This document shows positions 1,847-30,002 of a stretch of 32,000 bases of DNA, piece after piece. Position 1 is the stretch's first letter. Each line of letters begins with the position of its first letter. The translations under genes and the position numbers were made by a program. The notes beneath the pieces were generated by a model. It had not been told where the DNA came from. It did not search any database and saw only the letters and a list, made by a program, of their open reading frames with translations. The stretch is from Pseudodesulfovibrio mercurii (lineage in GTDB: Bacteria; Desulfobacterota; Desulfovibrionia; Desulfovibrionales; Desulfovibrionaceae), in assembly GCF_000189295.2 (NCBI RefSeq), contig NC_016803.1, forward strand, positions 240,001 through 272,000. Reading direction: 5' to 3'.

Positions 1847-4750
1847 ATGAGCCAGGACTTTCTCGACTCGGAAATCTTGTCCGACTTTTTTATTGAAGCC
1901 AAGGAGCACCTGGAGACCATCGAGCCCAACCTGCTCGAACTGGAGAAGGCACCGGACAACCTCGGCCTGTTGAACGAGATCTTCAGGCCTATGCACTCCC
2001 TCAAGGGGGCCTCGGGCTTTCTCGGCCTGAACAAGATCAACGGTCTGGCCCACAAGGCGGAGAACATCCTGGACGAATTGCGCCAGGGGTCCATGCGCGT
2101 GACCGGGGCGATCATGGACCTGATCCTGTCCGCCACCGACGCCCTGCGGACCATGGTGGACAACCTGGAGACCAGCGGGGTGGAGGGGGACGTGGATACC
2201 GCGCCCATCATCGCCCGCATCGAGGCCGCCCTGGTCGGCGAACTGCCGGAGAGCCCCGCGGCCGAGGCCGTGACCGCACCGGCACCCGAGGCCGTCGCGC
2301 CCGCCGCCGAGCCCGAACCCGCCGCCGCGCCGCAACCCGCCGGGGATGCCGACATGGCCGCTTTCCACCCGCAGCCCGATCCCGATTTCGATCCCACGCC
2401 CTATGCCCTGACCACGGTGGGCGAAGGCCACCTGGCCGACTTTCTGGAGGAGGCGCAGGAGATCGTCGAGAACCTGAACCGCTGTCTCCTGGCCATGGAG
2501 GGGGACCCGGGTGGCAACGACGAGCTGATCAACGACACCTTCCGCTATTTTCACAACCTCAAGGGCAACAGCGGCATCATCGGGTTCAAGGAGCTCAACT
2601 CCCTGACCCACGAGGCCGAGACCCTGCTGAACAAGGTCCGCAAGGGCGAGATCGCCTCCAGCCAGGGGCTCATCGACCTGCTCCTGGCGGCCGTGGATCT
2701 GATCGAGGCCCTGGTGACCAGGGTGGACGTGGAGACCGGCCGCGTGGAGCCGCTGGACACCAGCGTCATGGCCCAGGTCCTCCAGAAGGTCACCGAGGAC
2801 GGCAACGTGGACGGCGTGGCCGGCGTGGTGCCCGTGGGCCGACAGGCCGCCGAGGCGGCCCCGGAACCCGCCGCGAAGCCCGCTTCGGCCGTCGTAACGC
2901 CCGCGCTCGAACCGGCCGGGTCAGACGTCGAATACGACCCCGAGGACGTGGCCCTGTTCGTCCAGACCATCGAGCAGCAGTTCGAGGCCGCGCTGGTGGC
3001 TTTCAAGCTGCTGCGCGAGGACTCGGCCCAGAAGGACATTGTCGACGGCCTGTTCCGGACCTTCCAGACCATCCAGAATTCCACGGGCTACATGGGCTTC
3101 GACGAGATCAAGGAATACGCGGGCCGGACCGTGGGACTGGTGGACCAGGCCCGCAACTCGGACATGGATTTCGGCCTGATGCTCGACATCCTCGAACAGG
3201 AATACGCCATCCTCAGGGACATGATCACGGCGGCCATCGAGAAGCTGCCCGGCGCATCCCTGTCCGAGCCAGCGCCCGAGGCCAAGCCCAAGGCGTCGGC
3301 CCCGGCCCCGGCTCCCGAACCCGCTCCGGCCCCAAGGGCCGCGCCAGAACCGGCCCCGGCTCCCGCGCCGCGCGCCGCGACCAGGCCCGCACCGGTCAAG
3401 CCCGCAGCCAAACCCGCAGCCAAGCCCGCTCCGGCGGCAAGGACGACCATGCCCACCACCGCCGCAAGGAATGGCGGCAGCCAGGCCCCGGCTCAGGCCC
3501 AGGCCAAGCCCAAGGCCTCGAGCACCATCCGCGTGGACCATCACAAGCTCGACCACCTCATGAACGTCATCGGCGAGCTGATCATCAACCGCAACCGCTA
3601 CGCCATGCTCGCCCGGGCCCTGGAAGAGGGGCAGGAGGACGTGCACGTGGTCGCCCAGCAGCTGACCGAGACCACCTACGCCATGGCCCGCATTTCCGAC
3701 GACCTTCAGGACACCATCATGAAGGTCCGCATGGTCCCGGTGCAGACCGTGTTCTCCCGCTTCCCCCGGCTGGTCCGGGACCTGAGCCGCAAGTCCGGCA
3801 AGCAGGTGGAGTTGATCATGGAAGGCGAGGAGACCGAATTCGACAAGTCCGTGGTCGAGGAGATCGGCGATCCCCTGGTGCACCTGGTGCGCAACGCCGT
3901 GGACCATGGCCTCGAGGACGAGGAGACCCGCATCGCCCAGGGCAAGAAGCCCAAGGGACACGTCTGGCTGCGCGCCTACCACAAGGGCAACTCCGTGGCC
4001 ATCGAGGTCGAGGACGACGGCCGGGGCATGGACCCGGAAAAACTCCGCCAGGTGGCCGTGCGCAAGGGCATCGTCTCCCAGGAGGAGGCCAACGCCATGG
4101 ACGACCGCGAGGCCCTGGACCTGATCTTCGCGCCGGGCTTCTCGTCCGCCGAGAAGGTCACGGACATCTCCGGGCGCGGCGTGGGCATGGACGTGGTCAA
4201 GACCAACATAAAGAACCTCAAGGGCAGCGTGAACACCCAGTCCGAGGTGGGCAAGGGGTCCAAGCTGACCCTGACCCTGCCCCTGACCCTGGCCATCATC
4301 GACGCGCTCATGGTCCAGGTAGGCGGCGACACCTTCGCCATCCCCCTGGACGCCGTGTCCGAGACCACCAAGATCGAGGTCGAGAAGCTGTCCGACATCA
4401 ACAACCGCAAGGCCGTGACCCTGCGCGGCGAGGTGCTCGGCATCGTCGAACTGGCCGAACTGCTCGACATGCCCCAGTCCATGGACGAACGCACCGTCCT
4501 GCCCATGGTCGTCATCCAGGACAACGACCGCCGCCTCGGCCTGGTGGTGGACCGCCTCCTCGAACGCCAGGAGATCGTCATCAAGCCGCTCGGCCAGTAC
4601 CTGAACAACTTCAACCTCAAGGGGTTATCCGGCGCGACCATCATGGGCGACGGCTCCGTGGTGCTTATCCTCGACCCCCACGAGATCTACAGCCTGTCCA
4701 CCCAGCTTGGCCGCAAGGAGCCCCTGGTCGTGGCCGGCGCCATCAAGTAG
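1847..4750 (+). CDS. cheA: chemotaxis histidine kinase CheA with three tandem HPt (P1-like) domains
   Basis: HPt motifs RPMHSLKGASGF and RYFHNLKGNSGI, plus a third HPt-like repeat RTFQTIQNSTGY. Also present: P3 dimerisation region STIRVDHHKLDHLMNVIGELI, HATPase N box HLVRNAVDHG, G1 DDGRGMD, G2 GRGVGMDVV and a C-terminal CheW-like P5 domain. GAGGA lies upstream of the ATG. Confidence 0.95.
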   Translation: MSQDFLDSEILSDFFIEAKEHLETIEPNLLELEKAPDNLGLLNEIFRPMHSLKGASGFLGLNKINGLAHKAENILDELRQGSMRVTGAIMDLILSATDALRTMVDNLETSGVEGDVDTAPIIARIEAALVGELPESPAAEAVTAPAPEAVAPAAEPEPAAAPQPAGDADMAAFHPQPDPDFDPTPYALTTVGEGHLADFLEEAQEIVENLNRCLLAMEGDPGGNDELINDTFRYFHNLKGNSGIIGFKELNSLTHEAETLLNKVRKGEIASSQGLIDLLLAAVDLIEALVTRVDVETGRVEPLDTSVMAQVLQKVTEDGNVDGVAGVVPVGRQAAEAAPEPAAKPASAVVTPALEPAGSDVEYDPEDVALFVQTIEQQFEAALVAFKLLREDSAQKDIVDGLFRTFQTIQNSTGYMGFDEIKEYAGRTVGLVDQARNSDMDFGLMLDILEQEYAILRDMITAAIEKLPGASLSEPAPEAKPKASAPAPAPEPAPAPRAAPEPAPAPAPRAATRPAPVKPAAKPAAKPAPAARTTMPTTAARNGGSQAPAQAQAKPKASSTIRVDHHKLDHLMNVIGELIINRNRYAMLARALEEGQEDVHVVAQQLTETTYAMARISDDLQDTIMKVRMVPVQTVFSRFPRLVRDLSRKSGKQVELIMEGEETEFDKSVVEEIGDPLVHLVRNAVDHGLEDEETRIAQGKKPKGHVWLRAYHKGNSVAIEVEDDGRGMDPEKLRQVAVRKGIVSQEEANAMDDREALDLIFAPGFSSAEKVTDISGRGVGMDVVKTNIKNLKGSVNTQSEVGKGSKLTLTLPLTLAIIDALMVQVGGDTFAIPLDAVSETTKIEVEKLSDINNRKAVTLRGEVLGIVELAELLDMPQSMDERTVLPMVVIQDNDRRLGLVVDRLLERQEIVIKPLGQYLNNFNLKGLSGATIMGDGSVVLILDPHEIYSLSTQLGRKEPLVVAGAIK
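3265..3445 (+). repeat. Pro/Ala/Lys-rich low-complexity linker coding repeat inside cheA
   Basis: Encodes PAPEAKPKASAPAPAPEPAPAPRAAPEPAPAPAPRAATRPAPVKPAAKPAAKPAPAA. It contains short tandem AAGCCCGCAGCC-type units. Confidence 0.6.
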
Positions 4751-4754
4751 TCAG

Positions 4755-4812
4755 CCGAGCAGGCAAAAAAAAGGGACTCCTAAAAAGGAGTCCCTTTTTT
4801 TTGCCTGCTCGG
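4755..4812. terminator. bidirectional rho-independent terminator (extended perfect palindrome) after cheA
   Basis: CCGAGCAGGCAAAAAAAAGGGACTCC pairs perfectly with GGAGTCCCTTTTTTTTGCCTGCTCGG around a 4-6 nt loop. It starts 5 nt after the cheA stop. The GC core is flanked by A8 and T8, so it reads as a terminator on both strands. Confidence 0.8.
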
Positions 4813-4813
4813 G

Positions 4814-5090
4814 CGCGGCTTCCGAGAGCGGCACGTCTGCACATTTTTCGGGCTACGCTCAATCCGTCAACGTAGACGGCTACGCCGCCGGTTGCGCTGC
4901 GTCCGAGAAAATGCACAGCCGCACCATTCTTGAAAGCCTGACGGCGTGCGATATCCCCCAAAAGAAAAGGCATGCAGAACCGCGCCCGCACGGCCTTGCC
5001 GAAGGCACACAAAAAGTTCTGGAGATTCTTAAGAACCTCTTTCAAGAGGTTCTTGAGCGGGTCCAGGGCAGAGCCCTGGCCGCCGGAGGC
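4814..5090 (+). repeat. structured intergenic repeat element, copy A (candidate ncRNA or MITE-like palindromic element)
   Basis: It shares ordered boxes with 15431-15743, including a 22-nt identical box TGCCGAAGGCACACAAAAAGTT (4997-5018) and CTGGCCGCCGGAGGC (5076-5090). Its internal hairpins are conserved by compensatory changes. No reading frame is conserved between the copies. Confidence 0.8.
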
Positions 5091-5091
5091 G

Positions 5092-5129
5092 AAAAAAGGC
5101 CGGGAAGCAGATGCTTCCCGGCCTTTTTT
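5092..5129. terminator. bidirectional rho-independent terminator
   Basis: AAAAAAGGCCGGGAAGC-AGAT-GCTTCCCGGCCTTTTTT forms a perfect stem with flanking A6/T6. It lies 18 nt beyond the stop of the minus-strand membrane-protein gene and 1 nt after repeat copy A. Confidence 0.8.
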
Positions 5130-5147: not shown

Positions 5148-6074
5148 CTACATCATGGTCATGAAGTTGACGAACAGGGTGGCGTTGAGGGCGTGGAGGA
5201 GCCAGAAGAGGCCCACGGCCAGGAAGGCGAGTCCCTTGAAGCGCAGGGGGGATTCGCAGCGGTTGAGGAACAGCCAGATGAGGCCGCAGAGGCCGCCGAG
5301 GACGGTCAGGCCGACCCAGACGTAGGCCAGCGGGGTGCCGAGGATGAGGGTTTGGATGTCGGCGGGCAGCCGGGAGTAGAGCCAGAGCTGGCAGCCGAGG
5401 AAGCCGATCATGGGCAGCAGGGCCCAGCGGGAGGCCATGCGCACGGCGAAGTTGTAGTAGTCGCGCCCGTAGTCGTCCCTGTTCCGGCGCAGCAGGATGT
5501 AGGCCAGGCCCAGGGCCGCGGCGGCGGACAGGACGAGCAGGGCGTACATGGCCGACATGGGCTGGGCCAGGATGACGGTGTTGGTCATGACGTCGCCGTT
5601 GGGCTGGGTCAGGGAGAAATTGAGGGCCAGCTTGGCCGGGACCACGATGGCCAGGCCGGTGATGGCGGCGAAGGTGGCGACGAGGCCGAGGGCGATGTGG
5701 GCGGCCTTGGCGTTGCGCATCCTCTTCCAGGTGGTGAAGTAGATCAGCCCGGCGACGACGAACACGGCAAAGGCCACGGAGCCGTTGAAGAAGGCGGAGC
5801 CGGGGGTGAGGTAGGCCTGGAAGAGGTCCGGGAACCTGACCAGGGCGATGCCCAGGGAGGCCCCGTAGATGAGGATCAAGGCGATGACCAGGATCAGGCC
5901 CATGCCCGCGGTCTGCTGGCCGTACTTGTCGAAGAGGACCTTCTTGCGGGTCTTGGCGGAGATTTCGGCCAGGACCGCGATGGCCGGGCTGCCGAGGGCT
6001 GCCATGCCGAGCAGGCTGAAGAAGGCCGGCGCGAGCATGTAGGCGACGAGGGTCAGGGTTTCTTGGATGCTCAT
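5148..6074 (-). CDS. polytopic inner-membrane protein of unknown function (about 8 TM helices)
   Basis: 308-aa ORF with alternating hydrophobic helices and short K/R-rich loops (AKTRKKVLFDKYG, KRMRNAKAA, RRNRDDYGRDYY). GGAG lies upstream of the ATG and a terminator downstream. I recognise no family. Confidence 0.7.
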   Translation of the reverse strand: MSIQETLTLVAYMLAPAFFSLLGMAALGSPAIAVLAEISAKTRKKVLFDKYGQQTAGMGLILVIALILIYGASLGIALVRFPDLFQAYLTPGSAFFNGSVAFAVFVVAGLIYFTTWKRMRNAKAAHIALGLVATFAAITGLAIVVPAKLALNFSLTQPNGDVMTNTVILAQPMSAMYALLVLSAAAALGLAYILLRRNRDDYGRDYYNFAVRMASRWALLPMIGFLGCQLWLYSRLPADIQTLILGTPLAYVWVGLTVLGGLCGLIWLFLNRCESPLRFKGLAFLAVGLFWLLHALNATLFVNFMTMM

Positions 6075-6266
6075 GGTCGATGGACTCCGATGGGTTGCCG
6101 GGGCGGACCGTGCCCCGTGGGCGTTTTTTTGCCTGAAAATCGTGCGGCGCGCAAGGGCGCAGTTCCGGGGCCGGTGGCGTGTTGGCCATCAGATTCCTTG
6201 CAAAAATTCCGTCTATCGCCTATTGCCTATGAAACGCTCAAACGAGACCGCGCGGAGACCTCCCTG

Positions 6267-14923: not shown

Positions 14924-15430
14924 ATGGAAAATCCCCTGGTCCTTCTGGAGACCCCGGAAGGCGAAATCCTCATCGAACTGTTCCCGGACAAGGCCCCCAA
15001 GACCGTGGAAAACTTTCTCAAATACGTGGACGACGAGTTCTACGACGGCACCCTGTTCCACCGGGTCATCAAGGGCTTCATGATCCAGACCGGCGGCCTG
15101 ACCTTCTCCATGCAGGAAAAGGAGACCCGCGAGCCCATCGAGAACGAGGCGACCAACGGCCTGAAGAATCTCAAGGGCACCGTGGCCATGGGCCGCCTGC
15201 CCGAGCCGCACAGCGCCACCTCCCAGTTCTACATCAACGTGGCCGACAACCCGGACCTGGACCACACCGGCACGGACGACGCCGACTTCGGCTACTGCGT
15301 GTTCGGCGAGGTCGTGGACGGCATGAACGTGGCCGAAAAGATCAGCAAGACCCGCACCCACTCCTACCAGGGCTTCGACGACGTCCCCAAGGACCCGGTC
15401 TCCATTATCACCGCCCGGCGGTTCGAGTAA
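14924..15430 (+). CDS. ppiB: cytoplasmic cyclophilin-type peptidyl-prolyl cis-trans isomerase
   Basis: 168 aa with no signal peptide. Cyclophilin motifs FHRVIKGFMIQTGG, KGTVAMGR and SQFYINV are present. GGAG lies upstream of the ATG. Confidence 0.92.
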   Translation: MENPLVLLETPEGEILIELFPDKAPKTVENFLKYVDDEFYDGTLFHRVIKGFMIQTGGLTFSMQEKETREPIENEATNGLKNLKGTVAMGRLPEPHSATSQFYINVADNPDLDHTGTDDADFGYCVFGEVVDGMNVAEKISKTRTHSYQGFDDVPKDPVSIITARRFE

Positions 15431-15743
15431 CGCGGCTTCCGATAGCGGGCCATCTGCACATTTTTTCCGGCCGCGCCAATCCTCACGTAGACGGCTATCG
15501 CTGCTGTCGTCATCTCTAAGACCGAGCAAGCTCGGCCTAAGAGTTGAGGCTCGCTGCGGTTGTCGCGGCCGGAAGAAAATGCACAGCTGACCCACTCTCG
15601 AAAGCCTTACCCCCTGCGGCAGCCGAAGAGAAAAGACTCGCCACCCCGCGACCGTACACACCTGCCGAAGGCACACAAAAAGTTTGGAAGGGGAGTCCAG
15701 AGGGGAAACTTTTTCAAAAGTTTCCCCTCTGGCCGCCGGAGGC
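15431..15743 (+). repeat. structured intergenic repeat element, copy B
   Basis: It begins at the first nucleotide after the ppiB stop. It has the same ordered boxes as copy A: CGCGGCTTCCGA, TCTGCACATTTTT, ACGTAGACGGCTA, GAAAATGCACAGC, TGCCGAAGGCACACAAAAAGTT at 15663-15684 and CTGGCCGCCGGAGGC at 15729-15743. A perfect 16-bp TTCA-loop hairpin spans 15697-15732. Confidence 0.8.
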
Positions 15744-15750
15744 ATTCTTG

Positions 15751-15794
15751 AATCAAAAAAGGGCCGCCCCAATCGGGGCGGCCCTTTTTTGATT
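15751..15794. terminator. bidirectional rho-independent terminator shared by ppiB and the NMO-like gene
   Basis: AATCAAAAAAGGGCCGCCCC-AATC-GGGGCGGCCCTTTTTTGATT forms a perfect 20-bp stem with A6/T6 tracts. It lies 17 nt beyond the minus-strand stop at 15812. Confidence 0.85.
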
Positions 15795-15811: not shown

Positions 15812-16981
15812 CTACTTGTTCAGGACGTCCTTGATGCACTGGGCGGCCTGTTCCTTGGTGTCGGCGATCTTCTGGCCGACTTCCTGGTATTTGCGTTCCG
15901 CCTCTTCGCTCAGGGTGGCCATCAGTTCCTTGACGGTGATGATCTTGTCCACCAGGTAAGCGTTGGCGCCGCAGAAGGCGAAGCCGTTCTTGAGCTTGCC
16001 CCGGTAGGCGTTCACCAGGGCCTGGGCGATGCAGTAGGGGGACTTGTCCTCGGCGCAGGAGTGCAGACACTTGTGGACGCACTTCTTGGGGTGCTTGAGT
16101 CCGGCGGACACGGCGTCGAGGAAGGCGTTCTTCAGGGCCCGGCCGGGCATGCCCACGGGGCTCTTGATGATGGTCACGTCCTCGGCCCTGGCGTTGACGT
16201 AGGCCTGTTTGAAGGCGATGTCGGCGTCGCATTCCTCGGTGGCCACGAATCGGGTGCCCATCTGCACGCCGGAGGCGCCCATCTCGAGGAAGCGGGCGAT
16301 GTCCGCGCCGGTGTACACGCCGCCCGCGGCGATGACCGGGATCGGCTTTTCGTGCTTGTCGCGGTAGGGCTGCACGGCCTCGACGACCTGGGCGAGGATG
16401 TTTTCGAGCTGGTACTCGGGGTCGTCGATCTGTTCGGCCTTGAAGCCGAGATGGCCGCCCGCCTTGGGGCCTTCGACCACGAAGCCGTCGGGCAGGTAGT
16501 TGAAATGGCTGGCCCACTTGCGGCACAGGATGGAGGCCGCGCGGCCCGAGGAGACGATGGGCACGAGCTTGGTGCGCAGGTCCTCCTTCATTTCGTCGGA
16601 GACCTCGCGCAGGTACTTGGGCAGGTCCAGGGGCAGCCCGGCGCCGGAGATGATCAGGTCCACCTTTTCGCGGATGGAGGTGCGGACCATGTCGCCGTAG
16701 TTGGTCAGGGCGCACATGATGTTCACGCCGAGCAGGCCGTCGGTCATCTTGGCCCGCGCCTTGCGGATTTCGTCTATGAGGCTGCGGCGGTCGGCCCCTT
16801 CGGGGTCCGTGGCGCGCTGGGGATCGCGCATGCCGATCATGGAGGTGGCGATGACGCCCACGCCGCCCTCGTTGGCCACGGCGCTGGCCAGCCCGGAAAG
16901 GGAGATGCCCACGCCCATGCCGCCCTGGATGATGGGCAGCCTGGCCGTGAGATCACCGAAATTAAGACTGGGGAGTTTCAT
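15812..16981 (-). CDS. NAD(P)H-dependent flavin oxidoreductase, nitronate monooxygenase / FabK-like family
   Basis: The N-terminus PIIQGGMGVGISLSGLASAVANEGGVGVI and the segments AAGGVYTGADIARFLEMGASGVQMGTRF are typical of the FMN TIM-barrel NMO family. The C-terminal extension is Cys-rich. GAGGT SD lies upstream. Confidence 0.85.
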   Translation of the reverse strand: MKLPSLNFGDLTARLPIIQGGMGVGISLSGLASAVANEGGVGVIATSMIGMRDPQRATDPEGADRRSLIDEIRKARAKMTDGLLGVNIMCALTNYGDMVRTSIREKVDLIISGAGLPLDLPKYLREVSDEMKEDLRTKLVPIVSSGRAASILCRKWASHFNYLPDGFVVEGPKAGGHLGFKAEQIDDPEYQLENILAQVVEAVQPYRDKHEKPIPVIAAGGVYTGADIARFLEMGASGVQMGTRFVATEECDADIAFKQAYVNARAEDVTIIKSPVGMPGRALKNAFLDAVSAGLKHPKKCVHKCLHSCAEDKSPYCIAQALVNAYRGKLKNGFAFCGANAYLVDKIITVKELMATLSEEAERKYQEVGQKIADTKEQAAQCIKDVLNK

Positions 16982-28541: not shown

Positions 28542-30002
28542 TTATTTCTTCTTGTCCAGGGCTTCCTGGAGCTTGGCGCCGAGCAGCCCCATGGAGCCGG
28601 TGTCGGCCTTGCGCTTGGGCGCGAACTCCTTCCAGTCGCCGTCGTCGCGGACGTCGCCCGTGCTCAGGGATATCTTGCGCTCCCCGGTCTTGACCTCGCC
28701 GATGACCACCTCCACGGTGTCCCCGGCGCGCAGCTTCTCGAAGGCGGCGGGCTTCTCGGAGCGGGCGATGACGGACTTGGGCAGCAGGCCGGTGATGCCC
28801 GGCTCCAGCTGCACGAAGATGCCGAACTGCTCCTGCTTCTCGACCACGCCCTCGACCTTCTGGCCCGCCTGGTAGCGATCGGCCACGCCGGCCCACGGGT
28901 CGCCCTCGGCGTCCTTCATGGACAGGCCGATGCGGCGCTTGTCCAGGTCGATGGACTTGATCTTGACCGTGACCGCGTCGCCTTCCTTGACCATGTCGGC
29001 GGGCTTGTTCACGCGCTTGGTGTAGCTCATCTCGGAGACGTGGACCAATCCGTCCACGCCCGGGGCGATCTCCACGAACGCGCCGAAGTCGGCCAGCCGG
29101 ACGACCTTGCCGGAGACGATGTCGCCCACGGCGAAGGTGGCGGACAGGGTGTCCCAGGGGTTCTGGGCCAGTTCCTTCATGGACAGGGAAATCTTGAGCC
29201 GTCCCTTGTCGTCCTTGTCCAGCTTGGTGATCTTGGCCCGGACCTTCTGGCCCACGGAGACAACCTCCTCGGGGTGGCTCACGCGGCCGTAGCCGAGCTG
29301 GGAGATGTGCACCAGCCCTTCCAGGCCGGGCATGATCTCGACGAAGGCCCCGAAGGCGGCCAGCCGGGTGACGGTGCCCTCGACCTCGTCGCCGACCTTG
29401 GTCTCGTCCACGAAGGTCTGGGCGGACTCGGCGGCCTCGCGCTCGACCAGGGCGCGGCGGGAGACCACGATGTTCCGGCCGTGGTTCTCGAGCTTGGTGA
29501 TAAGAAATTCCAGGGTCTGACCCACGTACTCCTCGGGGTTCTCCACGAAGCGGGCGTCGATCTGGCTCACCGGGCAGAAGGCCCGGCGCTGGAGGATGGT
29601 CACGTTGAAGCCGCCCTTGCAGGTGGATTCGACCTTGCCCTCCACGGGCAGGGCGCCCGCCTTGGCCTCCTCGAGCATGGCCATGCCGCCGATGCCGGAG
29701 ATGGCGCGGGACAGCTTGATGCCGCCGGAGTCCTTGCCGACCACGTACAGCTCCACCTTGTCGCCTTCGGCCACGGTGCAGTTGCCGTCCTCGTCCAGCA
29801 GTTCCTCGCGCTCGACGATGCCGTCCAGCTTGGTGCCGGTGTCCACGAAGACGGTGTTCTCGCCCACCTGGATGACGGTGCCGGTCACCTTGTCGCCCAC
29901 GGACAGGTCGTCTCCGCCGCCTTCGCTGTACTGTTCGAACAGTTCGGCGAAGGACTCTTCGCCTTCTTCCACGCCATTACGCTCTTTGAATTCTTCGGAC
30001 AC
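28542..30002 (-). CDS. rpsA: 30S ribosomal protein S1-like protein with five S1 domains
   Basis: 486 aa with repeated S1/OB units: VGDKVTGTVIQV, VGDEVEGTVTRLAAFGAFVEI, VGDIVSGKVVRLADFGAFVEI, AGQKVEGVVEKQEQFGIFVQL. Each is followed by a K-I-x-x-[IL]D signature. Confidence 0.85.
   Translation of the reverse strand: MSEEFKERNGVEEGEESFAELFEQYSEGGGDDLSVGDKVTGTVIQVGENTVFVDTGTKLDGIVEREELLDEDGNCTVAEGDKVELYVVGKDSGGIKLSRAISGIGGMAMLEEAKAGALPVEGKVESTCKGGFNVTILQRRAFCPVSQIDARFVENPEEYVGQTLEFLITKLENHGRNIVVSRRALVEREAAESAQTFVDETKVGDEVEGTVTRLAAFGAFVEIMPGLEGLVHISQLGYGRVSHPEEVVSVGQKVRAKITKLDKDDKGRLKISLSMKELAQNPWDTLSATFAVGDIVSGKVVRLADFGAFVEIAPGVDGLVHVSEMSYTKRVNKPADMVKEGDAVTVKIKSIDLDKRRIGLSMKDAEGDPWAGVADRYQAGQKVEGVVEKQEQFGIFVQLEPGITGLLPKSVIARSEKPAAFEKLRAGDTVEVVIGEVKTGERKISLSTGDVRDDGDWKEFAPKRKADTGSMGLLGAKLQEALDKKK

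Follow-up and report, generated by a model that had tools for sequence, protein, structure and literature searches.

Composite intergenic repeats at two convergent gene junctions of Pseudodesulfovibrio mercurii ND132 and the cross-phylum family of their 5' hairpin module

The window analysed here is a 32,000-nt stretch of contig NC_016803.1 (positions 240,001 to 272,000) of Pseudodesulfovibrio mercurii ND132. It holds two related non-coding segments, copy A (4814-5090) and copy B (15431-15743), both of which lie at junctions of convergent genes with a terminator beside the segment end, as the first-pass annotation of this DNA had described. Copy A is bounded on its left by a terminator-like hairpin (T1) that follows cheA (stop codon at 4748-4750) and lies outside the repeat; T1 has arms that are 100% complementary and an orthologous hairpin in a P. 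indicus-like locus (L051). The hairpin on its right (T2) is orthologous in five species, and the R arm of the repeat adjoins the T2 A-tract. Copy B follows a cyclophilin-type PPIase gene (14924-15430, Pfam PF00160), its X module beginning 3 nt past the TAA at 15428-15430, and the hairpin behind it is common to the PPIase transcript and a convergent NMO-family gene (15812-16981, minus strand). At both copies the terminators have an A-tract/GC-hairpin/T-tract layout. They were taken from a repeat finder and the sequence, and a consensus terminator scan missed them because their A/T tracts lengthen the stems. The parts of the two copies are as follows.

4755-4812, bidirectional: terminator-like hairpin T1, a perfect palindrome with 27-nt arms, A8-GGGACTCC-loop-GGAGTCCC-T8
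4817-4938, plus strand (family sense): X module of copy A, a hairpin of ~120 nt
4837-4847 and 4908-4917: invariant boxes CTGCACATTTT and AAAATGCACA of X copy A
4939-4979, plus strand: linker of copy A, a degenerate Y region (..CCCCCAAAAGAAAAGG..)
4980-5090, plus strand: R arm of copy A, solo, its inverted partner absent from the window
4987-5024 and 5028-5057: core CGCACGGCCTTGCCGAAGGCACACAAAAAGTTCTGGAG and palindromic hairpin H1 of R arm A
5059-5081 and 5078-5090: GC hairpin H2 GGGTCCAGGGCAGAGCCCTGGCC and terminus GGCCGCCGGAGGC of R arm A
5092-5129, bidirectional: terminator-like hairpin T2, serving the convergent gene DND132_0219 (5148-6074, minus strand)
15434-15606, plus strand: X module of copy B, carrying a nested 54-nt insertion in its apical region
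15498-15551, plus strand: N module, a mini-hairpin of 54 nt (TCGCTGCTGTCGTCATCTCTAAGACCGAGCAAGCTCGGCCTAAGAGTTGAGGCT) within the apex of X copy B
15607-15636, plus strand: linker of copy B, a degenerate Y region
15637-15743, plus strand: R arm of copy B, with its core at 15653-15690 and its terminus ending at 15743
15697-15732: H1 hairpin of R arm B, of type GGGGAAACTTTTTCAAAAGTTTCCCC, without H2
15755-15790, bidirectional: terminator-like hairpin behind copy B, A6-GGGCCGCCCC-loop-GGGGCGGCCC-T6

Six shared boxes had been reported for the two segments, and each occurs once per copy on the plus strand at the positions given (copy A/copy B starts at 4814/15431, 4836/15453, 4870/15485, 4907/15575, 4997/15663 and 5076/15729). 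The 22-nt box gave 2 matches against 0.00 expected in shuffles, with up to 3 mismatches permitted, and the alignment of the copies has a mean column identity of 75%. Indels of 42, 11, 7, 6, 19 and 2 nt leave the copies without a common frame, in agreement with the earlier judgement that a protein gene is unlikely. The long CATTTTT/AAAATG helix proposed for both copies is found in the minimum-free-energy folds of both (z = -2.6 in copy A, -6.2 in copy B). The ends GCTTCCG and CGGAGGC, described as mutually complementary, can form 7 pairs, one of them G-U, but this pairing is absent from every fold; in all folds the 5' end pairs instead with CT(C/T)TCGAAAGCC within the 5' module. Likewise, the gap of 1-7 nt claimed between segment and terminator holds for copy A, which ends at 5090 before the hairpin at 5092-5129, but amounts to 11 nt for copy B (end 15743, terminator 15755-15790).

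Further copies, whose existence had been put forward for checking, were found for both modules, the R arms by blast and nhmmer and X with a covariance model. Their distribution shows that each segment is not the single element it had been taken for but a composite: most relatives have the last ~110 nt only, and the 5' module is also found alone. Thus, ~46 relatives were retrieved with the 20-nt box, most of them aligning to copy A positions 167-277 only, and blast coverage reaches 42 related loci across 4978-5091 and 52 matches across R arm B (a depth of 42-52 for the arms), as against 4-11 for X. The nhmmer match in copy A spans 4981-5026 (E = 2.7e-13).

The R arm forms one end of a mosaic repeat that is specific to the genus Pseudodesulfovibrio. 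Complete R-type members are 270-700 nt long, have inverted termini of the form (AAGA)ATGCCTCCGGCGGCC...GGCCGCCGGAGGCAT(TCTT), and are assembled from optional perfect hairpins; an arm usually has an inverted partner arm, and the usual motif order is T(-)..R(+)T(+). The terminus motif has 87 matches in ~330 kb, and 89 arm cores were found by nhmmer. Modules of a K-type 570-nt element are present in some members and absent in others. The N module of copy B is missing in copy A, L006, L030 and L035 and recurs elsewhere in repeat members in both orientations, namely in the K-type element (L017 and L041), near the terminus (L002, L018, L026 and L033) and reversed (L046). The suggestion of a REP/MITE-like palindromic repeat at terminators therefore holds for the 3' third of the segment, which is multi-copy, found in both orientations and usually provided with an inverted partner.

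The hairpin with a TTCA loop lies in this third. In copy A it reads AAGAACCTCT-TTCA-AGAGGTTCTT (5031-5054), its counterpart in copy B is CCAGAGGGGAAACTTTTTCAAAAGTTTCCCCTCTGG (15697-15732), and the arm differences between them are compensated as described. The compensatory changes are real, but they are switches between discrete, highly conserved hairpin types, and the type of H1 differs even between orthologous loci. Among 81 arms there are 69 different hairpins, and 45 distinct R-arm hairpins (708 bp) contain 11 mismatches only, 6 G:T vs 5 A:C, with no preference for G-U over A-C. This hairpin-only count is a cleaner strand test than an earlier G-U count on arms from minimum-free-energy folds (60 vs 34), which was confounded by purine runs. 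A coding reading of the arm was rejected: the ATG in ATGCCTCCGG opens MPPAA.. peptides whose frame and length vary with hairpin type.

R-type arms adjoin stop codons, terminators or start codons. At ~30 R-type termini a convergent stop codon lies 4-28 nt off, and at seven the terminal GGAGGC is followed 4-16 nt on by the ATG of the next gene (pheT, a family-3 glycosyltransferase, a class-I tRNA synthetase, a tetrapyrrole methylase, an impB/IMS polymerase, the macB permease and purE). The Pfam matches of these seven genes start at profile position 1-3 of the first domain, six of them at 1-2, and in the gene behind the terminus at L034:42 the match starts at residue 19. The element in the macB operon, between the ATPase and permease genes, occurs in five Pseudodesulfovibrio species and is missing in P. 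profundus. Target-site duplications, which the first-pass annotation had named, along with terminal inverted repeats and a lack of covariation, as marks of a plain MITE, were not seen at six complete R-type elements, whose flanks are inverted, not direct, and share no consistent direct repeat, and no clean empty site with exact repeat boundaries was obtained among the compared loci. Nearby IS5-like, IS1595-like and ISL3 copies have unrelated ends and interrupt the repeats. Arms that flank a low-GC ORF (L011) and a PEP-CTERM gene (L002) suggested a cargo cassette, an idea we rejected: because orthologs of L011 have the same arms around a ~90-nt centre, the ORF is a later insertion and gives no evidence for gene mobilisation by the arms. 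Foreign genes can lie between the arms.

Both window loci show turnover of the modules between species. The cheA spacer is filled in ND132, a P. indicus-like species, Huiquan2017 and P. karagichevae, and empty in Desulfovibrio sp. Fe33. The four filled spacers differ in their module sets, with the R arm adjoining the A-tract of the orthologous terminator: in P. indicus X has collapsed to GGCT-CTCAAAAGCC and H1 is of another type, and in Huiquan2017 and P. karagichevae an inverted left arm stands in place of X. The ortholog of copy B (87% identical) has the R arm only, its left half being missing. R arm B and the orthologous arm of 'D. caledoniensis' share 102 of 109 positions, every substitution falling in the first ~20 nt; the last ~89 nt are the same save for a 1-nt loop indel, and codon third positions of the genes flanking copy B are 78-88% identical between the two organisms. 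Insertion polymorphism of the kind expected of MITEs is seen at the cheA spacer, the left half of copy B and the macB spacer.

The 5' module has a very different distribution. X is a ~118-nt hairpin of a family present in at least two phyla, and the covariance model built from it found ~95 copies in metagenome contigs, mostly from low-GC Bacillota. In uncultured low-GC gut bacteria X lies in the str and spc ribosomal-protein operons, 0-5 nt after the stops of rpsL, rpsG, rpsQ, rpsN and rplF. It has the sense orientation in 79 of 80 copies and stands within ~10 nt of a stop codon in 68 of 79; of 27 listed low-GC copies, 25 have a gap of -5 to 5 nt between stop and model, and the remaining two stand in tandem arrays. 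Genes on both sides are on the same strand in 60 of 89 cases. The proposal of a 3'-UTR element stands as far as position is concerned, the 5' module lying family-wide 0-5 nt after the stop of a co-oriented gene. X is found without R arms at L035, L044, L032 and L036 and in tandem duplication at L123, L096 and L119. Desulfovibrionaceae copies outside the window have a conserved two-hairpin Y domain downstream (GAGCCGCTGTCGGGTG..CACCCGAATCGCTCC), which was derived from the downstream flanks of L006, L016, L030, L035, L044, L074, L082, L094 and L116.

Within X, the boxes UGCACAUUUU and AAAAUGCACA do not vary between Thermodesulfobacteriota and gut Bacillota. The outer stem is a ~16-20-nt inverted repeat, and conservation peaks in internal boxes ~20 nt from each end and at the apex, not at the tips. 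Low-GC copies often have TA on both sides, which is not significant in AT-rich DNA, and no flanking direct repeat was found at high-GC copies. A 41-codon open frame through one low-GC copy is not conserved and stops differ among copies, and a coding reading of X was dropped. Model R1 scores the family at 55-120 bits in the sense and 28-56 bits in the antisense direction; it matches X copy A, whose apical hairpin is CGTAG-ACGG-CTACG, at 4818-4936 (75.1 bits on the plus vs 28.2 bits on the minus strand) and X copy B at 15435-15604 (plus strand, 55.5 bits).

Covariation, which the first-pass annotation had advised checking, is strong in X by counts set against shuffled and slid controls. Pairing cells make up 93.2% vs 77.4% in shuffles, and double-change cells number 159 vs 43.6 in shuffles and 25-46 in slid controls. 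X follows rpsL, rpsG, rpsN and rplF in several low-GC species, with the differences compensated. These observations bear on the possibility that X acts in cis within the sense transcript as an RNA element selected by the host, a stop-proximal 3'-UTR or intercistronic hairpin that might block exonucleases, provide a site for RNase processing or be coupled to translation termination. In the last case a terminating ribosome would have to open the X outer stem, and the CA/CA internal loop together with the apical CCUC..CUUCGG would be contacts for a protein or the ribosome. The near-uniform sense orientation and tight spacing from the stop, the retention at orthologous ribosomal-protein operon junctions, the covariation well above both controls, a sense model score about twice the antisense score, and the start of copy B 3 nt after the PPIase stop are all in its favour. 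But X is multi-copy and includes tandem duplications, closely related Pseudodesulfovibrio species differ by its gain or loss, a strong terminator precedes copy A, and the hairpin is weak on the sense strand. Overall, we regard this possibility as unlikely.

The strand asymmetry of X is pronounced. In 70 of 70 copies, and likewise in the two of the window, the complementary (antisense) strand folds more stably than the sense strand, with fold energies of -27 (sense) vs -54 kcal/mol (antisense) in the family, -50.2 (plus) vs -62.3 kcal/mol (minus) for X copy A and -82.8 vs -99.8 kcal/mol for X copy B. G-U pairs number 510 on the antisense vs 41 on the sense strand. In the sense-strand consensus helices, A-C mismatches exceed G-U pairs by ~3:1, which is the reverse of the usual signature of a transcribed strand, and where the sense strand has the invariant CA/CA loop, its complement has a 5'-UG-3'/3'-GU-5' tandem wobble. 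In low-GC X copies, the stop codon and A-run read as a U-tract right after the antisense hairpin.

It is conceivable from this asymmetry that the functional strand is antisense to the upstream gene (the minus strand of the window), where X would form a near-continuous helix with tandem U-G/G-U pairs and, depending on its orientation, would terminate antisense transcription or insulate against it, or would belong to a cis-antisense RNA. The greater stability of the antisense fold in every copy compared, the conversion of the CA/CA loop into tandem wobbles and the U-tract gained by low-GC copies would all follow. However, high-GC copies, including both in the window, lack a minus-strand U-tract, no antisense promoter was identified, and a simple terminator needs no invariant boxes. 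Furthermore, most low-GC copies lie in co-directional operons (the 60 of 89 above), where a convergent transcript is not expected. We consider a function on this strand quite unlikely. In the window copies, no T-run follows H1 or X on either strand, as one would in an intrinsic terminator, and the terminators proper are the separate flanking hairpins; judging from sequence, low-GC X copies framed by an A-run and a T-run may have terminator-like activity.

A strand-specific, imperfect hairpin with conserved mismatches might also be the recognition structure of an HUH-type transposase (RAYT or IS200/IS605-like), X and/or the arms being single-stranded DNA substrates in the manner of REPIN- or PATE-like elements. 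The lack of terminal duplications, the strong orientation bias relative to genes, the multi-copy, intergenic occurrence and a GTAG in the apical stem of Desulfovibrionaceae copies are consistent with such substrates. On the other hand, a non-systematic look through ~1.2 Mb of loci found no RAYT or TnpA beside any copy, and the GTAG of REP sequences is normally 5' of the hairpin, whereas in X it is inside. In IS200/IS605 elements the active strand is that of the lagging-strand template, and for leading-strand genes this is the sense strand; the better X hairpin, unlike that strand, is antisense. Taken together, HUH substrates seem a very unlikely explanation.

The first-pass annotation had leaned towards a terminator-ended small RNA on the plus strand, and the whole 277-313-nt segment might in principle be an independent gene for a trans-acting sRNA, for both copies end just before an intrinsic-terminator-like hairpin and copy B folds far better on the plus strand than its shuffled controls (z = -6.2). 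This reading is disfavoured on several grounds. Copy A, with a terminator on either side, is probably silent for the most part, copy B begins directly behind a stop codon, and no plus-strand promoter-like site was found at the window copies. The minus strand folds better, and there is no Rfam match. Moreover, the segment consists of two modules with separate distributions, its left half is swapped for other modules in orthologs, and the unit is not conserved whole. Judged by sequence, neither copy is a stand-alone sRNA gene, and the chance that the segments are one after all is very slight.

None of the 4227 models of Rfam release 15 reached its gathering score in the window or in the repeats of 18 related loci, in which only RNase P and one tRNA were detected, away from the repeats; the first-pass annotation, too, had recognised no named RNA family in the element. 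Permissive Rfam searches of both window copies (E <= 10) and of a low-GC X copy (E <= 1) returned generic hairpin or terminator-like matches well below gathering (microRNA precursors, small RNAs and leader elements, with microRNA-like matches only for the low-GC X copy). Plasmid, phage and viral collections held no relatives of X or the arms, apart from one 64-nt GC-rich plasmid match that was taken as chance, and literature searches by organism, repeat type and box sequences found no description of these repeats. In the retrieved loci, no transposase with the same ends and no other partner protein was identified.

Several other classes were considered. Terminal inverted repeats of MITE type (~4-30 bp) are present in complete R-type elements, of which the window copies have the right-hand arm only, and target-site duplications are seen for neither R-type elements nor X. 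The arms (70-110 nt, with perfect hairpins) do not resemble the imperfect palindromes of 20-40 nt with a 5' GTAG that define REP, BIME and REPIN sequences, and GTAG occurs only inside the apical stem of Desulfovibrionaceae X copies. Integron attC sites were rejected, as the CCTAAAC/GTTTGGG-like strings are off consensus by one extra base and the copies are dispersed beside housekeeping genes instead of forming arrays. By-eye resemblances to a sigma-54 promoter, an IHF site, group II intron ends, boxA and a K-turn were each a poor fit. A small protein-coding gene was likewise discarded, the frame not being conserved between copies and the hairpin types giving unrelated translations.

On balance, we think it somewhat more probable than not that the two unrelated modules making up each copy are non-autonomous palindromic repeats that spread as DNA and are co-transcribed as 3'-UTR or intercistronic hairpins. 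How they spread, and what they may do to RNA, is inferred: the X and R modules likely spread through a trans-acting enzyme and/or gene conversion between copies, accumulating in the spacers between convergent genes of ND132. Hairpins would be gained or lost precisely at their bases, and the palindromes would be kept perfect either by a requirement for the hairpin in propagation or by intra-strand template switching that restores it. Copies would survive only at harmless sites, right after a stop codon or terminator and ahead of the next ribosome-binding site, and X would be retained only in the orientation that gives the weaker, A-C-mismatched hairpin in mRNA. Fixed copies would then be co-transcribed, copy B as a ~310-nt structured 3' UTR of the PPIase mRNA that ends at the 15755-15790 terminator, where it would most plausibly serve as a 3'-end barrier or processing hairpin. 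Besides the missing target-site duplications and partner protein, other observations count against this reading: many copies are old and at orthologous positions (the macB element, and X after rpsL, rpsG, rpsN and rplF), and R arm B is free of substitutions for ~89 nt where synonymous-type sites are only ~80% identical.

Tolerated selfish DNA alone would not predict the invariant boxes and orientation rule of X. The invariant 10-nt boxes across phyla and the near-absolute orientation instead point, at the sequence level, to sequence-specific recognition and possibly a host function. X may, though we would not put this as high as an even chance or near it, represent an uncatalogued cross-phylum class of element with a dedicated conserved partner. 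It would then be an RNA device coupled to translation termination, or else a mobile element that is strand-specific and mechanistically new, and in both cases more than tolerated junk. ND132 is genetically manipulable, and X is experimentally tractable in that reporters in either orientation are simple to build. For annotation, the modules explain contig breaks in Pseudodesulfovibrio assemblies, and GGAGGC termini serve as ribosome-binding sites of several housekeeping genes.

Among known systems, the BIMEs and REP sequences of Enterobacteria are likewise intergenic, multi-copy mosaics of palindromic units that alternate in orientation and combine with other short motifs, found at gene 3' ends, between convergent genes and within operons without target duplication. 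The macB-operon element parallels the classical malE-malF REP. However, the R arms are 70-110 nt long vs 20-40 nt, their terminus GGCCGCCGGAGGC is unrelated to REP, they have no 5' GTAG, and the non-systematic look through the retrieved loci showed no RAYT; their hairpins are perfect and come in discrete sequence types, and their termini double as Shine-Dalgarno sequences of downstream genes.

Prokaryotic MITEs, including Correia/NEMIS, ERIC, Chunjie and QMITE, have been reviewed (PMC10969869). They share with the present repeats a size below ~500-700 bp, terminal inverted repeats, many copies, an intergenic and often 3'-UTR location, predicted stable stem-loop transcripts, and truncated and REP-like derivatives (PMC10969869). 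In contrast to MITEs, no direct-repeat target duplication was detected here and no parental IS is known, the Pseudodesulfovibrio elements are GC-rich rather than AT-rich, and X is conserved internally rather than at its tips and follows an orientation rule (79 of 80) that DDE-type MITEs do not show. The pneumococcal BOX, RUP and SPRITE repeats are modular in a comparable way (boxA-boxB(n)-boxC vs optional hairpin modules); they insert into one another and cluster, some are terminator-like, and they are co-transcribed with their neighbours (PMC10969869). They have no sequence similarity to the present repeats and are species-restricted, while X spans Thermodesulfobacteriota and Bacillota.

X resembles the cis-regulatory and repeat motifs in Rfam in being a ~118-nt hairpin whose helices covary and whose internal loops are conserved. 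Structured intergenic repeats are usually restricted to a species or genus, which is true of the R-arm family but not of X, whose architecture and 10-nt boxes are the same in a sulfate-reducing mercury methylator and in low-GC gut bacteria. X is stop-proximal and has nearly a single orientation, yet its best fold is on the opposite strand, a combination that no matched repeat class explains, and it would add a new family to the RNA and repeat catalogues.

The two look-alike intergenic segments in the window, copy A (4814-5090) and copy B (15431-15743), are each a composite of a 5' hairpin module of about 118 nt, here called X (4817-4938 and 15434-15606), and a 3' third, here called the R arm (4980-5090 and 15637-15743). 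Much of the first-pass annotation was borne out: the six shared boxes it named are all there, one time in each copy, on the plus strand and exactly where it placed them, the 22-nt box has two matches in the window against 0.00 expected (even at three mismatches), and in the TTCA-loop hairpin (5031-5054; partner inside 15697-15732) all four differences per arm are compensated. Both copies lie at convergent-gene junctions, as it described, with a terminator of A-tract, hairpin and T-tract adjoining the end of each (5092-5129 for A, hereafter T2; 15755-15790 for B). The copies align with a mean column identity of 75% and indels of 42, 11, 7, 6, 19 and 2 nt, and both fold more stably on the plus strand than shuffled controls do (z = -2.6 and -6.2). 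Copy A is flanked by the following features.

4755-4812, T1, a palindrome with perfect 27-nt arms and 8-nt A and T tracts, directly 3' of cheA and preceding copy A
5148-6074, minus strand, gene for a 308-aa protein 100% identical to DND132_0219 of Pseudodesulfovibrio mercurii

T1 is an unusually long symmetric bidirectional terminator. It is kept in the P. indicus-like ortholog and absent in Desulfovibrio sp. Huiquan2017, where a repeat arm adjoins the cheA stop codon. Elsewhere in the window, three direct copies of a 108-nt unit (29022-29900; 61-73% identity) in a predicted minus-strand coding region are probably an internal protein repeat, unrelated to X and the R arms.

The composite nature became visible in the distribution of relatives. 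Scanning one genome per species with 20 nt of a conserved box gave 46 loci (~24 in P. karagichevae, ~17 in 'Desulfovibrio caledoniensis', one in a Desulfovibrionaceae MAG), with five unrelated loci counted as chance matches; the matches lie on both strands, many at contig ends, which fits a dispersed repeat. The majority of relatives align to copy A positions 167-277 alone. Blast depth in the window is 42-52 over 4978-5091 and 15637-15749 and only 4-11 over 4815-4939 and 15432-15607, and X is found without an R arm in L035/L044, L032 and L036 (L-numbers denote fetched related loci). The proposal that each copy is one sRNA gene, read from the plus strand and closed by a terminator, can be ruled out with reasonable confidence: the segment is composite, a search for plus-strand promoter-like sites at the window copies found none, orthologs have other modules in place of the left half, terminators stand on either side of copy A, and copy B begins 3 nt 3' of a stop codon.

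The R arms form a family. With nhmmer we found 89 arm cores, only the two known ones in the window; ~330 kb of sequence holds 87 terminus motifs, among them a few chance occurrences within genes. The conserved core of each arm reads CGCACGCCCC-TGCCGAAGGCACACAAAAAGTTTGGGAG; to it are added the palindromic hairpin H1, in some arms a GC hairpin H2, and the terminus GGCCGCCGGAGGC. Among 81 arms H1 takes 69 different sequences, its stem measuring 14 bp in the median; the 708 bp of 45 distinct hairpins contain only 11 mismatches, 6 G:T and 5 A:C, so the palindrome is kept almost perfect and RNA-compatible wobble is not preferred on either strand. Most loci also carry an inverted arm 100-600 nt further left, starting with (AAGA)ATGCCTCCGGCGGCC, continuing as a long GA-rich perfect hairpin and ending in CCTAAACTTTTTGTGCCGCTTCGCGG; such loci are complete R-type elements bounded by 15-19-nt inverted termini, in which the terminal GGAGG can pair with CCTCC of the opposite terminus. 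A version of ~570 nt (K-type) is a mosaic of hairpin modules whose presence varies by copy. At six complete R-type elements no target-site duplication was visible, the flanks being inverted, not direct.

Smaller and foreign units are also associated with these repeats. A mini-module of 54-57 nt (ATCGCTGCTGTCG..TCTAAGACCGAGCAAGCTCGGCCTAAGA..) is nested in X of copy B at 15498-15551 and recurs in L017, L041, L028, L046, L002, L018, L026, L033 and L032, in at least three different positions (X apex, beside H2, near the arm terminus) and both orientations, and has the appearance of a third mobile hairpin unit, a very small one. Insertion sequences break H1 at L036:~5355-6190 and L038:~2290-3000, namely an IS5-like one, flanked by a TA duplication at CTTA|TAAG, and an IS1595-like remnant; in L050 an ISL3 copy adjoins the repeat. 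R-arm palindromes appear to attract IS insertions.

Read outward, about 30 R-arm termini are followed at 4-28 nt by a convergent gene's stop codon, across a pyrimidine-rich stretch (ATTCTTCC..CTA), and others, including both window copies, adjoin a terminator A-tract. Seven termini place GGAGGC 4-16 nt ahead of the ATG of a genuine gene; their positions are listed below.

L021:56-75, upstream of a start codon
L010:52-72, upstream of a start codon
L034:24-45, upstream of a start codon
L034:2836-2857, upstream of a start codon
L036:3614-3636, upstream of a start codon
L011:3284-3306, upstream of a start codon
L016:64-95, upstream of a start codon

The genes encode PheT, a family-3 glycosyltransferase, a class-I tRNA synthetase, a tetrapyrrole methylase, an impB/IMS polymerase, a macB-type permease and PurE. 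In six of the seven the first Pfam domain runs from protein residue 3-7 at profile position 1-2, and in the synthetase (L034:42) from residue 19. The repeat's GGAGG is thereby placed, by position, as a Shine-Dalgarno ribosome-binding site.

Comparison of orthologous spacers revealed turnover of whole modules. Between cheA and DND132_0219, P. indicus-like contigs keep T1, the linker, the R arm and T2, with X collapsed to GGCT|CTCAAAAGCC and an H1 of another type, lacking H2. In Huiquan2017 and P. karagichevae the inverted left arm replaces T1 plus X, and in Desulfovibrio sp. Fe33 unrelated sequence precedes T2, so the site is empty. The R arm adjoins the A-tract of the orthologous T2 directly in three of the filled loci and lies ~30 nt off in P. 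karagichevae. Around copy B, 7.3 kb of the window match 'D. caledoniensis' at 87.3% identity, with a break at 15430 and resumption at 15646, and the ortholog has a left arm and a different centre where X stands. The final ~89 nt of R arm B show zero substitutions and one loop indel against this ortholog, and third codon positions of the four upstream genes are 78-88% identical; this would point to selection on the sequence or to homogenisation by conversion. A similar element occupies the macB-type ATPase/permease spacer of five Pseudodesulfovibrio species and is absent there in P. profundus. Its left CCTCC terminus lies ~10 nt 3' of the ATPase stop codon, and a GGAGGC terminus precedes the permease ATG by 7-10 nt in four species, having decayed in the fifth, P. 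nedwellii. The P. karagichevae element has a low-GC ORF of 253 aa, lacking any Pfam match, inserted in its centre. Foreign-looking low-GC genes lie between arms at L011:2317-3295 (the 253-aa ORF) and L002:3144-4700 (a PEP-CTERM protein); orthologous loci of other species hold arms with a centre of only ~90-300 nt, which suggests that insertions favour the AT-rich centre as a hotspot.

Ten Pseudodesulfovibrio copies of X give a consensus hairpin of 42 pairs in which 93.5% of cells pair, with 16 pairs changed on both sides against 8.1 +/- 1.6 in shuffled alignments (0/500) and 2-6 in slid controls. X starts a few nt after the stop codon of a co-oriented gene in six of the ten (copy B 3 nt after TAA) and behind a terminator hairpin in three, copy A among them. 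A two-hairpin 'Y' region usually lies 3' of X and is degenerate in the window copies.

Outside the genus, scanning metagenomes for CTGCACATTTT-N(45-75)-AAAATGCACA yielded at least 120 loci; among the matches listed, ~18 were high-GC and Desulfovibrionaceae-like and ~70 low-GC (23-35% GC). The low-GC copies share the architecture: an outer stem (CGATTAAAAGC../..GCTTTTAATCG-like), then AATCTGCACATTTT, a hypervariable compensated middle stem, CCTCGACGTAC-NNNN-GTACGaCTTCGG and AAAAATGCACATCT. In a 40-sequence alignment with 26 consensus pairs, 93.2% of cells pair against 77.4% when shuffled, with 159 double-change cells against 43.6 (0/500) and 25-46 in slid controls. R1, a covariance model of X whose E-values are approximate owing to shortened calibration, gives the window copies plus-strand scores of 75.1 and 55.5 bits; in 99 metagenome loci it finds ~95 sense-strand copies at 58-120 bits, whose antisense strands score only 28-56 bits. 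One low-GC host shares an identical ribosomal protein L6 with 'Clostridium sp. CAG:470'; in its contig X lies behind rpsQ, rpsN and rplF within 3 kb of the spc operon, and in other contigs behind rpsL and rpsG. Where a low-GC copy has an upstream ORF, its orientation is sense in 79 of 80 cases, starting within ~10 nt of the stop codon in 68 of the 79; the gap to the R1 start is typically 0-5 nt. X has no match in Rfam, is absent from plasmid, phage and viral collections, and its boxes were not found in the searchable literature.

Two copies of X stand head to tail after the same gene in some low-GC contigs, at L123:2245-2495, L096:3216-3462 and L119:2672-2998. A hairpin element 3' of rplE in another (L069:8365-8480) has the X apical motif (AATCCTCATTGTAC-AAAAA-GTACAATTCCGG), basal stems unlike X and no TGCACA boxes, which suggests a wider superfamily around a CCUC..hairpin..UCCGG apex. 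Divergent X-like copies in activated-sludge contigs of ~52% GC (L085:1440-1555, 38.8 bits, and L173) share the TGCACATTTTT/AAAATGCACA boxes and a CGTAC..GTACG apex, differ in the outer stems, and may come from a third host lineage.

The strands of X differ markedly. In each of 70 copies, the more stable RNA fold is that of the strand antisense to the upstream gene (means of -54.2 vs -27.3 kcal/mol in low-GC and -73.6 vs -55.3 in high-GC copies; -62.3 vs -50.2 for copy A and -99.8 vs -82.8 kcal/mol for copy B), with 510 G-U pairs against 41 on the sense strand. The invariant sense 2x2 loop CA/CA is a tandem UG/GU on the opposite strand, and in the sense consensus helices A-C mismatches outnumber G-U ~3:1. 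R arms lack such asymmetry. Placement and orientation of X point to the sense transcript, whereas fold energies point to the complementary strand.

On the most economical view, X and the R arm are both non-autonomous palindromic repeats: they spread as DNA, and copies last only at sites where they are harmless. An inherently asymmetric hairpin strand in X, together with selection against strong mRNA hairpins, could produce the orientation rule, the sense-strand A-C enrichment and the placement between a stop codon and the next ribosome-binding site. Against such spread stand the lack of a target duplication and of any mobilising enzyme in our searches, the many ancient, orthologous copies, the X boxes invariant across phyla, and the conservation of R arm B beyond synonymous sites. 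These four points keep function in RNA, function on the antisense strand and a single-stranded-DNA transposition mechanism as live rivals to the DNA-repeat reading.

Among known systems, the R arms work like BIME/REP, MITE or BOX-type mosaic repeats, and the REP/MITE-like alternative in the first-pass annotation is right for them as to the general kind; the target duplication of MITEs and the size and GTAG motif of REPs were not found. We file them as a new genus-level family of the mosaic-repeat kind. X resembles structured repeats of the ERIC and Correia types, which sit close to gene ends and are co-transcribed (PMC10969869). It differs from them in four respects: it spans phyla, its conserved sequence is internal, not terminal, its orientation is near-absolute, and its two strands are asymmetric.
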